Positions 35,902 through 40,411 of a DNA stretch of 55,637 bases are shown here, piece after piece. Source of the stretch: Candidatus Berkelbacteria bacterium. GTDB taxonomy: Bacteria; Patescibacteriota; UBA1384; DTJR01. Where the stretch lies: positions 1-55,637 of the forward strand of contig JAPLVK010000023.1 in NCBI GenBank assembly GCA_026397175.1, read 5' to 3'. The position numbers and the translations under genes were made by a program. Numbering within the stretch: position 1 is the stretch's first letter; each line of letters opens with the position of its first letter. Below the pieces are notes generated by a model. That model saw only the letters and a list, made by a program, of their open reading frames with translations. It was not told the origin of the DNA and did not search any database.

Positions 35902-36518
35902 TGACAAAAAAAGAAGAAGATAAAGAATTTTATCGCGATCTAGACAAGTCGAAAAAACCAAAAAGTTCTTGCAGTCCGTTGAGCTTCATTATTTTGATGG
36001 TATTGGTTTTGATTTTAGCCGAGGTTTTGCTTTTTGCTTTTTCTAAATCCATCAAAAATTCTGCAATTCCACAAGACGCAACCACACTTTCGCAAAGATC
36101 GGACTTGGGGTTTGTTAAAATCCCCACGGTAGAAAATTCAGATCGGGGATTTCAGGTAGTGATTTCGGAGGGGGTTTTGTGCTCCAAAATCGCATTGTCT
36201 CAAAATCATCCGGCATCAGATTATTCCTGCAAAATTTCTCAAGACGGAATCGAAATTTCTGGGAAAATCGTCTCATTTTTGCCACGCAACACGAAAGTAA
36301 CGATCGTCCCAAAAGTGCAAAACGATCAGCTTAAACTCGACATCACCAAAGCGCAGATCGGTTCAATTACAATTTTAAAATTTCTGACTTCCTCTATATC
36401 GGGGGTGTTAAATGATGCCCTGCTTAAGGATGTTCCCGAACTTAAATCGGCGAAAGTGACGAGAGTTAATATGGAGGAGGGAATTATGATAGTATGGGCA
36501 GAAAAAGTAAGTTCGTAA
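35898..36518 (+). CDS. Membrane-anchored hypothetical protein
   Basis: 206 aa with one N-terminal TM segment. ATGA overlap with the murJ stop. Confidence 0.65.
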   Translation: MMTKKEEDKEFYRDLDKSKKPKSSCSPLSFIILMVLVLILAEVLLFAFSKSIKNSAIPQDATTLSQRSDLGFVKIPTVENSDRGFQVVISEGVLCSKIALSQNHPASDYSCKISQDGIEISGKIVSFLPRNTKVTIVPKVQNDQLKLDITKAQIGSITILKFLTSSISGVLNDALLKDVPELKSAKVTRVNMEEGIMIVWAEKVSS

Positions 36519-36606
36519 AGTAAAAAGTTCATAAAGTTCATAAAGTAAGTGCATAGCATTTTTATCTACTTTATAAACTTTACAAACCTTATGAACTTTA
36601 TAACTT
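36509..36606. repeat. Family B AT-rich palindrome
   Basis: agttcgtaaagtaaaaagttcataaagttcataaagtaag pairs with ctactttataaactttacaaaccttatgaactttataact. Confidence 0.8.
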
Positions 36607-36612
36607 AAATAT

Positions 36613-36795
36613 ATGAATATTCGCAATTTCTGTATTATCTCCCATATAGATCACCCCACACCGTTCCTTACTGTGAAACCTGCCCGCAGATGCTACGCAT
36701 CAGGCGTTGCAGGCGGGCGGATTACATCCTGTTATCACAGTGCGTCAGGTTGCGGGGCGGGACTCATACAACTAATGTTTGTGGAGATCTTGTGA
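36613..36795 (+). other. Duplicated lepA 5' end (42 nt) fused to a 137-nt GC-rich insert. Forms a 60-codon uORF whose TGA overlaps the lepA GTG.
   Basis: 36613-36654 encodes MNIRNFCIISHIDH, the same peptide as 36792-36833, with 6 substitutions that are all synonymous. GTGA start/stop overlap at 36792-36795. Confidence 0.8.
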
Positions 36796-38666
36796 ACATT
36801 AGAAACTTCTGTATTATCTCCCATATAGATCATGGCAAGTCGACGCTGGCCGATCGGCTTTTGGAGATCACGGAAACGGTTGAAAAGAGAAAAATGCAGG
36901 ATCAGATTTTAGACAACATGGAATTAGAGCGCGAACGCGGGATCACAATTAAATTACAACCGGTGCGCATGCTGTGGAAGCCAAAACAAACGGAAATATC
37001 AAATCCCAAATCTCAAGCTCCAAATAAATCTCAAATCCCAAATTTTGAAAATTGTGACATTGAAAATTCATTGTCCCGCGAAGCGGGATCGGCTTCTGGC
37101 CGAAAAATTGAAAATTGTAAAATTGAAAATTTAGATTCAGTTCAGTACGAACTGAATCTAATAGATACTCCCGGACATGTAGATTTTACTTACGAGGTTT
37201 CAAGATCGCTGGCAGCTGTCGAGGGCGCGATTTTGCTGGTTGACGCAACCCAAGGGGTTCAGGCGCAGACGCTGGCCAATCTGGAATTAGCCAAAAAAGC
37301 CGGCCTGGTGATAATTCCGGCGATTAATAAAATTGATTTACCCGAAGCCCGCCCCGAAGAAGTTGCCTTTGAAATCGCCGATATTTTAAATTGCGATTTA
37401 GACGACATTTTATTTATTTCGGCTAAAACGGGAGAAGGTGTCGAGAAATTAATCGAAAATATTATCGAGAAAATTCCGCCGCCAAAGGTCAATTCATCCA
37501 AATTTGCCCGAGCGCTTGTGTTTGATTCTTTTTATGATGATTATCGGGGTATTGTGGTTTTCGTCAGAGTCATGGATCAAGAGTTTAAAAAAGGCGACGA
37601 AATTACTCTTGTCAGACAAAAGAAAACGACTCAAATCAGCGATTTGGGCCGAATTGAGCTCTCCTTAAAGAGCGACGAAAAACTTGAAGCGGGAGAAATC
37701 GGTTATTTTGTAACGACATTTAAAGAGGTCGCGGAGGCGAGGGTCGGCGAGACCGTGGCTTTAAAAAGCGAAGCAAGCGAAGTTGAACTTTTAGAGGGCT
37801 ACAAAGAGCCGCGGCCGATGGTTTATGCCGAAATGTATACAAACTCCGGCGATGACTACGCTCGGCTGCGCGACGCGCTTTCCAAATTAAAGCTGTCCGA
37901 TTCTTCGATTACTTACGAGCCGACATCATCTCAAGCGTTCGGGTTTGGTTTTCGGCTGGGATTTTTGGGGCTACTCCATTTGGAAATTGTTAAAGAACGG
38001 CTCGAACGCGAGTATGATCTGGAGTTAATTATCACCACGCCGACGGTAGATTTTCAAAAAAACGCGCAAGGGGAATTTGAGGAGCCGTGGGTTAAAATTG
38101 AAATCATCACGCCGAAGGATTATTTGGGGTCGGTGATTTCACTACTTCAGGAAAGGCGCGGTGAGCAGGTTGATATTAAACATTTGGAAGAAAAAGTGCT
38201 GATTCATTACGAAATTCCGCTGTCTGAAATTATCGTTGATTTTTACGACAAAATTAAATCGGTTACTCGCGGTTATGGCTCTCTAAATTACGAGCTGATC
38301 GGTTGGCGCAAATCGGACTTGGTCAAACTTGATATTATGATCGCCGGCGAAGCTATAGATGCATTTTCGAGGATGGTTTATCGCGGATTTGTCGAAAGAG
38401 TTGCCAGACAAGCGGTCGAAAAGTTAAAGGAATTTGTGCCCAGACAAAATTTTGAAGTTAAAATCCAGGCGGCTGTGGGAGGAAAAATTTTAGCAAGCGA
38501 GCGGATTTCGCCGTTTAGAAAAGATGTAACCGAAAAACTCTATGGCGGTGATGTCACCAGAAAAAGAAAATTGCTCGAAAAACAGAAAAAAGGCAAAAAA
38601 AAGATGGCAACCGTTGGGAGAGTAGAACTTCCAACGGATGTTTTTGTGAAATTGTTGAAATACTGA
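36792..38666 (+). CDS. lepA: Elongation factor 4 (LepA)
   Basis: NIRNFCIISHIDHGKSTLADR, DTPGHVDF, NKID, and the LepA C-terminal domain. GTG start with GGAG 6 nt upstream. The upstream ATG at 36690 lies in the GC-rich insert. Confidence 0.93.
   Translation: MNIRNFCIISHIDHGKSTLADRLLEITETVEKRKMQDQILDNMELERERGITIKLQPVRMLWKPKQTEISNPKSQAPNKSQIPNFENCDIENSLSREAGSASGRKIENCKIENLDSVQYELNLIDTPGHVDFTYEVSRSLAAVEGAILLVDATQGVQAQTLANLELAKKAGLVIIPAINKIDLPEARPEEVAFEIADILNCDLDDILFISAKTGEGVEKLIENIIEKIPPPKVNSSKFARALVFDSFYDDYRGIVVFVRVMDQEFKKGDEITLVRQKKTTQISDLGRIELSLKSDEKLEAGEIGYFVTTFKEVAEARVGETVALKSEASEVELLEGYKEPRPMVYAEMYTNSGDDYARLRDALSKLKLSDSSITYEPTSSQAFGFGFRLGFLGLLHLEIVKERLEREYDLELIITTPTVDFQKNAQGEFEEPWVKIEIITPKDYLGSVISLLQERRGEQVDIKHLEEKVLIHYEIPLSEIIVDFYDKIKSVTRGYGSLNYELIGWRKSDLVKLDIMIAGEAIDAFSRMVYRGFVERVARQAVEKLKEFVPRQNFEVKIQAAVGGKILASERISPFRKDVTEKLYGGDVTRKRKLLEKQKKGKKKMATVGRVELPTDVFVKLLKY
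36991..37131 (+). repeat. Family D repeat element with a GC hairpin core, inserted in frame in the lepA G-domain
   Basis: Encodes ...NPKSQAPNKSQIPNFENCDIENSLSREAGSASGRKIENCKIENL.... The DNA has the same arm/core architecture as 4951-5044. Confidence 0.75.
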
Positions 38667-38674
38667 AAACAAGA

Positions 38675-38752
38675 CCGAATTACGAATAACGAATTATGAA
38701 TTATGAATTAATACTTATCCATTCATCATTCAAAATTCATAATTCAAGATTC
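38675..38752. repeat. Family A AT-rich palindrome
   Basis: cgaattacgaataacgaattatgaattatgaatt ... attcatcattcaaaattcataattcaagattc. Confidence 0.85.
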
Positions 38753-38816
38753 TATCTTCAATGAGGGCTTGATGGCCCCGCTTTTTAGGGCGGGGCCATG
38801 TGTGGTTGGGGAGCGG

Positions 38817-39212
38817 CTAAGGCAGGTGCTGTTTGCACCAATCGTGGGCCGCTCGGATGACATCGTACCAAGGAGAGTCGTGTGGTACTTCGTAGGCGAT
38901 ACCACCATCGAAGTAGAAGAGGCGGCGATCGCCGTGGAGTATGAGCTCGGCGGTTTTGTTGACGATCACACTCTCGAGCAACTCGCGAATCGTGATCGTC
39001 TTCGGTTCGGCGTGAGGGAGGGTGATGCTGGGGCCTCGCTTTGCGTTTATACCCAGAAGCACGCAAAGGTCGAGCGGGAAGATCTCGCAATGCGGCGCGC
39101 GTCCCAGGGTTTTCTCGAGTCCCTTTTCCCCGCCAAACTCGCCTTTGAGCCACTCGCCAAGCTGCCTCGCCGTTGAAATTACCGGCTTCGTCTTGATCTG
39201 ATCGAGGGCCAT
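38817..39212 (-). CDS. Hypothetical protein (single-gene GC-rich island)
   Basis: 131 aa. AAAGGAGGG lies 7 nt before the ATG. Has its own consensus promoter. Confidence 0.7.
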   Translation of the reverse strand: MALDQIKTKPVISTARQLGEWLKGEFGGEKGLEKTLGRAPHCEIFPLDLCVLLGINAKRGPSITLPHAEPKTITIRELLESVIVNKTAELILHGDRRLFYFDGGIAYEVPHDSPWYDVIRAAHDWCKQHLP

Positions 39213-39254
39213 TTCGCACCCTCCTTTCTTAAGATGTCAAACAAAACTATCGTC

Positions 39255-39283
39255 ATTGTAGGGTCTTATTTTCAGCTTGTCAA
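39255..39283 (-). promoter_or_regulatory. Promoter TTGACA-17 nt-TACAAT
   Basis: Minus-strand -35 at 39283-39278 and -10 at 39260-39255. Confidence 0.65.
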
Positions 39284-39357
39284 ATTTTATTTTCTGGCCA
39301 TCGTTTTGTTCTTATGATTCCATTTTGCTAATCTTGTGCGGGTATCGTGCTATGATT

Positions 39358-39436
39358 GTGAATTATGAATCTTGAATTACGAATTATGATTTATTTGATT
39401 TTATTCATAATTCATTATTCGTAATTCATAATTCGA
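39358..39436. repeat. Family A AT-rich palindrome
   Basis: gtgaattatgaatcttgaattacgaattatgat ... attcataattcattattcgtaattcataattcg. Confidence 0.85.
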
Positions 39437-40031: not shown

Positions 40032-40388
40032 GTGGCACTAAAACTGTCTTTCGAAGAACTCTGCAAGATGGGTCTTGTGGGGCGCAAAGTCGTGTGCCGG
40101 ATTGGGCGACGGGAGTATCGCTTCTGGGTAGGCGATCAAAGGGTTTCGAAACGGGTAGGGCTCGTGCTAGAGTGCGACCCGAGGCGGAAAACACCCGAGG
40201 CAGACCGCCGGGTTGGCAAAAGACGGTTTCGGCTGCTAGAGCCGCACAAGCGTCACGGCGCCTTCTTTGTCCATGGCGACTTCGTGATTGAGCGTCGGGG
40301 CAATCTGATTGTCTGCGTTCCTCCTGCGAGGAAGAGGGGGAGCCGGAAGAAGGCACGCCATGTCGTCGTCATCGTCCTTCGGGATTAG
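40032..40388 (+). CDS. Small basic hypothetical protein (GC-rich island)
   Basis: GTG start 10 nt after AGGAG. It is the only protein-like frame. Followed by the terminator at 40412-40464. Confidence 0.45.
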   Translation: MALKLSFEELCKMGLVGRKVVCRIGRREYRFWVGDQRVSKRVGLVLECDPRRKTPEADRRVGKRRFRLLEPHKRHGAFFVHGDFVIERRGNLIVCVPPARKRGSRKKARHVVVIVLRD

Positions 40389-40411
40389 TCCGGGGGACAT
40401 CTCTTTCATAG

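Follow-up and report, generated by a model that had tools for sequence, protein, structure and literature searches.

The 5' end of lepA, a translational GTPase gene, is present twice in the stretch of DNA analyzed here, 55,637 nt of a Candidatus Berkelbacteria bacterium (GenBank assembly GCA_026397175.1, contig JAPLVK010000023.1) that we refer to in its entirety as the window. The insert that separates the two copies contains a copy of what is apparently an undescribed, non-autonomous, non-coding mobile hairpin element, here called element E, which recurs beside partial gene duplicates elsewhere in the genome and in related bacteria. Our overall interpretation, to which we assign a probability of roughly 0.55, is that a recombination or insertion event with a boundary at E has joined diverged functional alleles of the gene end at lepA. 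The features of the locus are as follows:

36613..36654, plus strand: remnant copy of lepA codons 1-14 (copy X') with its own ATG, joined directly to the native upstream flank.
36654..36758, plus strand: element E, a strand-specific imperfect hairpin with a core of ~65 nt once the nested insert is removed, matched by a covariance model.
36679..36717, plus strand: nested GC-rich hairpin of 39 nt, a second small repeated element inside E.
36759..36791, plus strand: element tail (spacer) with a GGAG Shine-Dalgarno sequence at 36783-36786, common to the copy at a PrgI-family locus.
36613..36795, plus strand: upstream open reading frame (uORF) of 60 codons, made up of X' and read-through of E, whose TGA overlaps the GTG of lepA.
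36792..38666, plus strand: intact lepA with a GTG start, assigned by Pfam and open reading frame (ORF); its codons 1-14 (36792-36833) form copy X.

Both start copies, at 36613-36654 (ATG...) and at 36792-36833 (GTG...), encode MNIRNFCIISHIDH. They differ at 6 of 42 nt (positions 1, 6, 10, 12, 15 and 42), every difference being silent (ATG/GTG at the start, AAT/AAC, CGC/AGA, AAT/AAC and CAC/CAT), and the longest run without a difference is 26 nt; judging from E copies elsewhere, which start with the same C, the CAC/CAT difference is probably the first base of E rather than a diverged codon. The 137-nt insert between them (36655-36791) has a GC content of 54.7%, compared with 42.4% for the window, and includes a GCCCGC...GCGGGC hairpin at 36679-36717 with a fold energy of -25.8 kcal/mol (z = -4.25); the 241-nt lepA region as a whole has a predicted fold of -67.8 kcal/mol. 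E sits after the His-Ile-Asp codons of lepA. The two starts lie 179 nt apart, a distance not divisible by 3, so the insert is out of frame, and lepA is intact because codons 1-14 are present again right after the element's tail. The TGA of the uORF (36793-36795) and the GTG of lepA (36792-36794) overlap in the sequence GTGA. Sequence comparison and translation thus bear out the description of the locus in a first-pass annotation made from the letters alone, which had reported a start duplicated with only synonymous differences, a GC-rich insert with a hairpin and a GGAG Shine-Dalgarno sequence, and a 60-codon upstream frame ending in a TGA that overlaps the GTG. The gene itself was identified in a Pfam search by PF00009 (GTP_EFTU; 3.3e-53) and PF06421 (LepA_C; 1.3e-41).

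The stretch 36519-36908 is matched without difference by a contig of another public run and is present in runs from two studies, which argues that the lepA arrangement is not an artefact of one assembly; the run data are assembled contigs, and the best-matching runs may include the window's own source sample. The run data also contain a joint that skips 39 nt (36678 to 36718, side 26), which probably comes from the E copy at the PrgI-family gene. Upstream of X' there is an AAGT..AAAAGTTCATAAAGTT motif that is resembled by the sequence directly before the lepA start of a relative without the insert (G007), indicating that the remnant sits in its native upstream context. A promoter and terminator scan of 36350-36900 found one promoter-like site, against 1.4 expected, and no terminator.

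A search for the insert across the window's own genome (G000; 1.01 Mb in 27 contigs), which the first-pass annotation had proposed, revealed a repeated element with six copies. A covariance model built from these six copies matches the lepA locus at 36651-36766 with 84.5 bits. E consists of an imperfect hairpin of ~65 nt, with a CCCC/GGGG pair at its base, CTTACTG in the 5' arm, CAGTGCG in the 3' arm and a small apical hairpin, followed by a variable tail of ~35 nt that carries the GGAG; together these measure roughly 100 nt and are non-coding, and the arms of the hairpin are imperfect inverted copies of each other. At the PrgI-family locus, where E is uninterrupted, the predicted fold has an energy of -28.6 kcal/mol, and the tail of that copy is common to the lepA copy up to GGAGAT, a few bases before each start codon. 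In an alignment of 111 further copies (108 distinct rows), compensatory changes on both sides were found in 16 of 18 pairs, and pairing held in 91.7% of cells, compared with 69.6% in shuffles and 33-53% with slid partners, although this alignment was fitted to the model and so somewhat favors the structure. One U.G pair is kept in 99 of the 108 rows, which points to folding by one particular strand only. The bases before E show a weak T-T-G-A consensus, in which, over 148 copies, T occurs at position -4 in 45%, T at -3 in 37%, G at -2 in 35% and A at -1 in 55%, and no flanking repeat of fixed length was found around copy sets that are 93-100% identical in G039, G043, G060 and G014. A full-text literature search, conducted at the level of results, returned no description of such an element in these bacteria.

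The 39-nt hairpin within the lepA insert is missing from an otherwise 96-100% identical E copy on contig C21, which identifies 36679-36717 as a second element nested in the first. Partial copies with 79-87% identity occur in the same genome on contigs C15 (two), C7, C20 and C14, a similar hairpin lies at a different position within an E copy of G043 (L019:289-405), and from these sequences the 39-nt hairpin looks like a second family of tiny mobile hairpins. In G060 (L079-L082), E is embedded in a larger repeat with terminal inverted repeats of its own (CCACTAAT ... ATTAGTGG), and E is thus also a module of composite mini-elements.

Two other copies in the window's own genome reproduce the lepA arrangement. 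At the PrgI-family gene on C21, the first 13 codons (MQYKVPQNIDMED) occur twice around E, with 6 of 39 nt differing, all silently, and at tsaD on C26 the duplicated starts MKNKIILAIETSCD and MKNKFILAIETSCD lie around E. A genome-wide scan for 9-amino-acid peptides repeated within 40-600 nt yielded 32 merged pairs, among which lepA, the PrgI-family gene and tsaD are the only start-anchored duplicates with nucleotide differences; all three flank E. It had been proposed in the first-pass annotation that an inserted element carried with it a recoded end of lepA. This stands insofar as the insert is a repeated element and the downstream copy, together with the GGAG, restores an intact lepA; however, a near-identical E at the PrgI-family gene is accompanied by the start of the PrgI-family gene itself, which shows that E has no gene piece as a constant component. 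The three further copies lie among DnaA boxes upstream of dnaA, before another gene and in an intergenic region. The first of these (C21:39911-39987; L010) has a counterpart among TTATCCACA-type DnaA boxes upstream of dnaA in G009 (L018:1501-1577), a member of a different family, such that this position of E at the replication origin is either conserved or recurrent.

We then consider the element across the class, where the covariance model detected E in 31 of 61 genomes with 1-24 matches each; in an even sample of the phylum (151 genomes searched), only 4 of the genomes with E lie outside the class. The genomes are mostly metagenome bins, many of them incomplete, and related loci are not independent. 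Flanks were extracted for 149 copies from the 31 genomes, of which 146 were usable. In 40 of the 146, the sequence that abuts the 5' end of E recurs 4-60 nt past its 3' end (up to 275 nt in arrays), a score that only 3 of 435 mismatched flank pairs reached; a few of the 40 are not insertion duplicates, examples being repeated DnaA boxes and two neighboring tRNA-Met genes. Wherever a case could be interpreted, the intact gene is located 3' of E, and the partial copy corresponds to the near end of that gene. Same-strand 5'-end cases comprise lepA (G000, G004, G005, G014 and G039), the PrgI-family gene (five genomes), tsaD (two), typA, ychF, gatB, uvrB, an epimerase gene, deoC and a dinB-like gene; 3'-end cases, on the opposite strand, comprise gyrB, RNase J (in stacked arrays) and a sortase-like gene; and RNA genes contribute 3' or 5' parts of tRNAs and the 3' end of 5S rRNA. 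Gene names other than lepA, PrgI and tsaD were assigned from recognizable N- or C-terminal motifs. This one element family is found at 15 or more different genes. The RNase J-like 3' end (...VIPVIIEA*) appears as a hot spot (L026 in G014:C76, also L071, L028, L125 and L137), in which the last codons are stacked in up to four copies, interspersed with E and with hairpins of a second type (CCCTCCTTCGC...GGAAGGG).

Both empty and filled lepA sites occur among relatives, a comparison that the first-pass annotation had also called for. E is missing from 22 of the 27 lepA loci whose start could be read, including that of G007, which belongs to the same genus as the filled G005; the filled loci are those of G000, G004, G005, G014 and G039. 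None of 80 lepA loci from metagenomes carries E, these being only 52-65% identical. The E copies at lepA in G004, G005 and G039 share one type, and those of G000 and G014 each correspond to a type found elsewhere in their own genome; the presence of different sub-lineages of E at lepA means that either the His-Ile-Asp codons have been targeted more than once or E copies have converted one another.

The differences between paired copies resemble those between working genes. Duplicates at 5' ends show 59 synonymous and 16 non-synonymous nucleotide differences, where random change would give ~20% synonymous, and the opposite-strand duplicates at 3' ends show 35 synonymous and 6 non-synonymous differences; as the 3' remnants lie beyond the stop codon of the gene, translation of the remnant cannot explain the silent pattern there. 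In the lepA copies of G004 and G014, serine codons switch between the TCN and AGY families (TCG/AGC and AGT/TCA), and the N-terminal extensions differ between copies while IRNF(C/S)II(S/A)HID is kept. Between the lepA remnants of G004 and G005, which appear to be orthologous, all differences are silent. Remnants are thus undecayed and yet diverged in the way orthologues are, which suggests separate ancestries for the two copies, with a recombination or insertion boundary at E.

Similar evidence comes from genes that are not translated. In G004 (L016:1440-1860), a 3' remnant of tRNA-Thr(GGT) has a compensated pair in the T stem and a different acceptor strand from that of the working tRNA; the acceptor strand of the upstream 5' remnant pairs with that of the 3' remnant and not with that of the working tRNA. 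The two remnants, which flank the working tRNA, are of an older allele whose middle 25 nt are missing, and the flank downstream of the 3' remnant resembles the native flank of G002, while the working tRNA-Thr is 96% identical to the G000 allele. The complete gene sits between two inward-facing hairpins, the second of which is only E-like (5.5 bits). Remnants of other alleles are also nested on both sides of tRNA-Ile in G028 (L121) and of tRNA-Pro in G032 (L025). At the G028 tRNA-Ile, only short spacers that contain no E hairpin lie between the inner remnant pair and the working tRNA, and to judge from these sequences the replacement of one allele within another may in part be independent of E.

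The lepA uORF is laid out for coupling to the gene, as had been noted in the first-pass annotation, and this layout recurs. Among 25 comparable 5'-end cases in 14 genomes, the uORF is open through all of E in 21, compared with 39-56% of other copies in which single frames are open. All 21 read-through uORFs stop within ~16 nt of the real start, 20 of them by the start call of the script; in the remaining one (L086), the stop lies 1 nt past the ATG of the duplicated peptide, and the distance was measured from that ATG. This sequence arrangement suggests translational coupling, in which ribosomes terminate and then re-initiate at overlapping stop and start codons. As in textbook coupling, the lepA locus has a GTGA overlap, a Shine-Dalgarno sequence just upstream and an upstream frame that passes through a stable hairpin; unlike in textbook cases, the upstream frame does not belong to a neighboring gene but stems from the fusion of a mobile element with a remnant of lepA itself. 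Coupling would keep the start codon and frame of the remnant, but it does not account for the amino acids that are kept.

The scenario that we favor is that the lepA insert is a copy of the non-autonomous element E that was later struck by the second, 39-nt hairpin element, and that the two lepA copies are alleles, each of which would have evolved as a working gene end in a different lineage. A recombination or insertion event with its boundary exactly at the 5' end of E would have placed these alleles side by side. The upstream copy, which retains its native flank, would be the resident remnant, and the downstream copy would be an allele that either arrived with E or was exchanged up to E later. 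Ribosomes would start at the remnant's native site, translate the open frame through E while unfolding the hairpin, terminate at the overlapping TGA, and begin anew at the GTG of lepA aided by the GGAG of the element. E itself may move on single-stranded DNA, in the manner of REPIN or IS200/IS605-derived hairpins. We infer the recombinational origin, the incoming copy at lepA, the coupling and the movement of E from sequence comparison; observed directly are the element family and its structure, the rule that E lies at gene ends, the imprint of purifying selection on both copies, the empty sites and the layout of the uORF. A broader interpretation must be made more cautiously, and we regard it as tentative and on balance doubtful: E and related hairpins may mark an undescribed form of DNA transfer in ultra-small bacteria, in which the 5' end of the hairpin would bound an incoming working end of a conserved gene, or a whole small gene such as that of a tRNA, that lands in the resident homologue, disables it and takes over its function. 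Such an insertion would be both harmless and hard to lose, gene termini would be exchanged between lineages without an integrase of the element's own, and the open frame and stop/start overlap would have evolved in the hairpin to keep the host gene expressed.

Several observations weigh against the joining of diverged alleles at E. The incoming copy can be identified at only one tRNA locus and not at lepA, where the two copies of G000 each have 9 differences (counted by eye) from the empty G007 allele, leaving undecided which of them came in. The differences between copies often reach the junction, and do not cluster away from it as a simple crossover within the remnant would predict. Sixteen differences at 5' ends are non-synonymous, mostly at L015 and L085; the silent-only differences between the G004 and G005 remnants mean that selection may act on the uORF peptide at 5' ends; and in 4 of the 25 cases the uORF ends within E. 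Some duplicates are also identical (62, 42, 26 and 25 nt), which this interpretation does not explain. Finally, no enzyme clearly accompanies the element in a co-occurrence check that covered the Y1_Tnp and Phage_integrase families: tyrosine recombinases (PF00589) give 1-3 hits in all 61 genomes whether E is present or not, and the Y1/IS200-type transposase domain (PF01797), found in 30 of the 61 genomes (many of them incomplete bins), occurs in 18 of 31 genomes with E and in 12 of 30 without it, and is missing from the E-rich G004, G005 and G036. Y1 transposase-like proteins (~220 amino acids) may nevertheless be named as a candidate enzyme.

Some of these points would follow from an alternative scenario that we consider unlikely, in which E generates long target-site duplications of variable length (12-62 nt), survivors are those in which the duplication covers the whole gene end, and the uORF peptide or its translation is under selection. 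The identical duplicates are what such a process would leave, the position of their first base, at the start codon or beside it, is what selection on Shine-Dalgarno spacing would give, and both the predominance of open uORFs and the silent-only divergence of the G004 and G005 remnants would agree with peptide selection. Such selection cannot act, however, on 3' remnants past the stop of opposite-strand genes, where the ratio of 35:6 is also found, nor on tRNA remnants, which carry compensatory changes; coupling moreover requires an open frame and not a conserved peptide. Near-identical E copies elsewhere are without long duplications, and simple long target duplication was rejected as a general cause on this ground. 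The first-pass annotation had likewise argued against a recent simple target-site duplication, which is indeed a poor fit given that differences are predominantly synonymous across the E family as well as at lepA. Two other sources of diverged copies were rejected. Reverse-transcriptase template switching onto RNA 3' ends does not agree with the several tRNA remnants that abut E internally and in antisense, and the differences are not adenine-specific as a diversity-generating retroelement would require.

Phages and islands that integrate at tRNA 3' ends, and e14 at icd, carry inserts that restore the interrupted gene end, and one may postulate that the lepA locus is the decayed scar of such an event (attL, remnant, attR), in which an integrase targeting the 5' end of lepA brought in a replacement start. 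We judge this to be improbable. A close precedent is SXT, of the SXT/R391 integrative and conjugative elements, which integrates at the 5' end of prfC (PMC2791158). Like lepA, prfC encodes a translational GTPase; both arrangements have a partial gene end, foreign DNA and an intact end, and the copies differ as diverged alleles. The geometry of the lepA locus is the one expected, and the tandem remnant stacks at the RNase J 3' end in G014 recall those at tRNA integration hot spots. Integrative elements nevertheless measure 10-100 kb, carry their own integrase and use one attachment site each; E measures ~100 nt, encodes nothing and is found at 15 or more targets, with near-identical copies at lepA and the PrgI-family gene. 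Only ~100 nt separate the repeats, and beyond the universal tyrosine-recombinase hits no integrase tracks with E. Judged as an integrase-driven integrative element or a remnant of one (CIME), E shows the diverged direct repeats of the target gene end and lacks both a dedicated recombinase and a single attachment site.

That E is a conserved cis-regulatory RNA of lepA, a leader or riboswitch with the uORF as its regulatory leader peptide, had been raised as an alternative in the first-pass annotation and is very improbable. The structure is conserved and covarying and the uORF is laid out for coupling to the start codon, but Rfam 15 at the gathering threshold found only 2 tRNAs in the window, permissive scans of 36400-37000 and of the uninterrupted copy (L002:1400-1650) gave only chance-level matches (best over the insert 14.8-16.2 bits, E-value at least 1.2), and a scan of 20 related loci gave no match for E. 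The insert thus corresponds to no known riboswitch or leader in Rfam. E is also missing from most lepA loci of relatives and from all 80 of metagenomes, and it occurs antisense to genes, at opposite-strand 3' ends, in tRNA genes, beside 5S rRNA and among the DnaA boxes of the oriC region. Ribosome bypass from the upstream to the end of the downstream copy, as in T4 gene 60 or mitochondrial byp elements, such that the N-terminus would be encoded by both copies, has next to nothing to recommend it: a GC-rich hairpin follows the possible take-off site in an AT-rich genome and coding potential is kept in both copies, but T4-type bypass has identical take-off and landing codons with a stop right after take-off, whereas here the last codons differ (CAC and CAT), the upstream copy is followed by CCC and 46 further codons without a stop, ribosomes would have to cross 179 nt, a separate start codon and Shine-Dalgarno sequence serve the downstream copy, and the 3'-end, tRNA and 5S cases would be left unexplained.

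Returning to the joining of diverged alleles at E, the element can be compared with known families of small repeats. REPIN/RAYT systems and mini-elements derived from IS200/IS605 are multi-copy, extragenic, imperfect hairpins with two inverted half-sites. E itself most resembles this type, in its hairpin of ~70 nt, its strand-specific fold and the lack of a regular target duplication. Elements of this type have a fixed tetra- or pentanucleotide directly on their 5' side, where E shows the weak T-T-G-A consensus, and the co-occurrence of E with Y1 transposase domains is weak; we know of no REPIN or IS200/IS605-derived element that is flanked by duplicated gene ends. Like miniature inverted-repeat transposable elements, E is multi-copy, small, non-coding and made up of inverted repeats, but it lacks their short, regular target-site duplication. 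The palindromic elements of Rickettsia are small palindromes that lie inside protein genes of a reduced genome and leave these genes functional, as they keep the reading frame and become part of the protein. At lepA, in contrast, the insert and second copy together add 179 nt, are out of frame and end in a stop, and the protein starts anew. Another precedent is found in fungal mitochondria, where mobile inserts carry a duplicated N-terminal piece of the host gene, and the authors propose that gene fragments are exchanged between species through gain and loss of such inserts (PMC7315562). Those inserts are introns or endonuclease ORFs of organelle genomes; E is bacterial, is without an ORF and does not imply splicing.

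What appears to be new is the combination of a tiny non-coding hairpin that has many targets at the ends of conserved genes with remnants of diverged alleles and a built-in coupled uORF. If this reading is correct, dozens of puzzling pseudo-starts, incomplete tRNAs and incomplete gene ends in the class go back to a single small family of hairpins; in annotation pipelines such features would otherwise appear as pseudogenes, wrong starts or spurious small ORFs. The termini of conserved genes (translational GTPases, tsaD, gyrB, RNase J, tRNAs and 5S rRNA) appear to have been exchanged between lineages at the boundaries of the element, which is relevant to marker-gene phylogenies of these organisms. 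The lepA locus would represent a natural design for harmless insertion into an essential gene, with a duplicated end, a translatable hairpin and a stop/start overlap. As sites are either empty or filled, E could also serve as a marker of recombination in uncultured populations.

Several further features were observed around lepA. Between the upstream ORF and the remnant start there is an AT-rich inverted repeat (36516-36607) with 31-nt arms that are 81% complementary. Within the gene, at about 36970-37140, an in-frame low-complexity insert of ~50 amino acids lies in the GTPase domain between QPVRM.. and ..LNLIDTPGH; a small GC hairpin and short direct repeats make up part of it. The distribution of inserts at this site is patchy, such inserts being present in G000, G002, G020, G015, G039, G014, G012 and G019 (short) and absent from G001, G004, G005, G006, G009 and G016.

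Contigs of 4.1 and 5.7 kb from two runs (X7 and X8), which are longer and deeper (depth 30-65) and come from the same samples, match only 41 nt of the lepA start (36795-36835), with 5 differences, before continuing into unrelated flanks; from these contigs, a related and more abundant organism, in which the start of a GTPase gene lacks the element, seems to live in the same habitat. Directly after lepA lies a GC-rich island (38676-39435; 55-62% GC at about 38750-39200) bounded by 36-nt AT-rich inverted repeats (38676-38711 and 39400-39435) that are 89% complementary. Its ORFs overlap on both strands, a 131-amino-acid ORF on the minus strand (38817-39212) is without a Pfam match, and the island may represent a further insertion. 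A second GC-rich island (54-63% GC) is present in AT-rich surroundings at 40050-40400.

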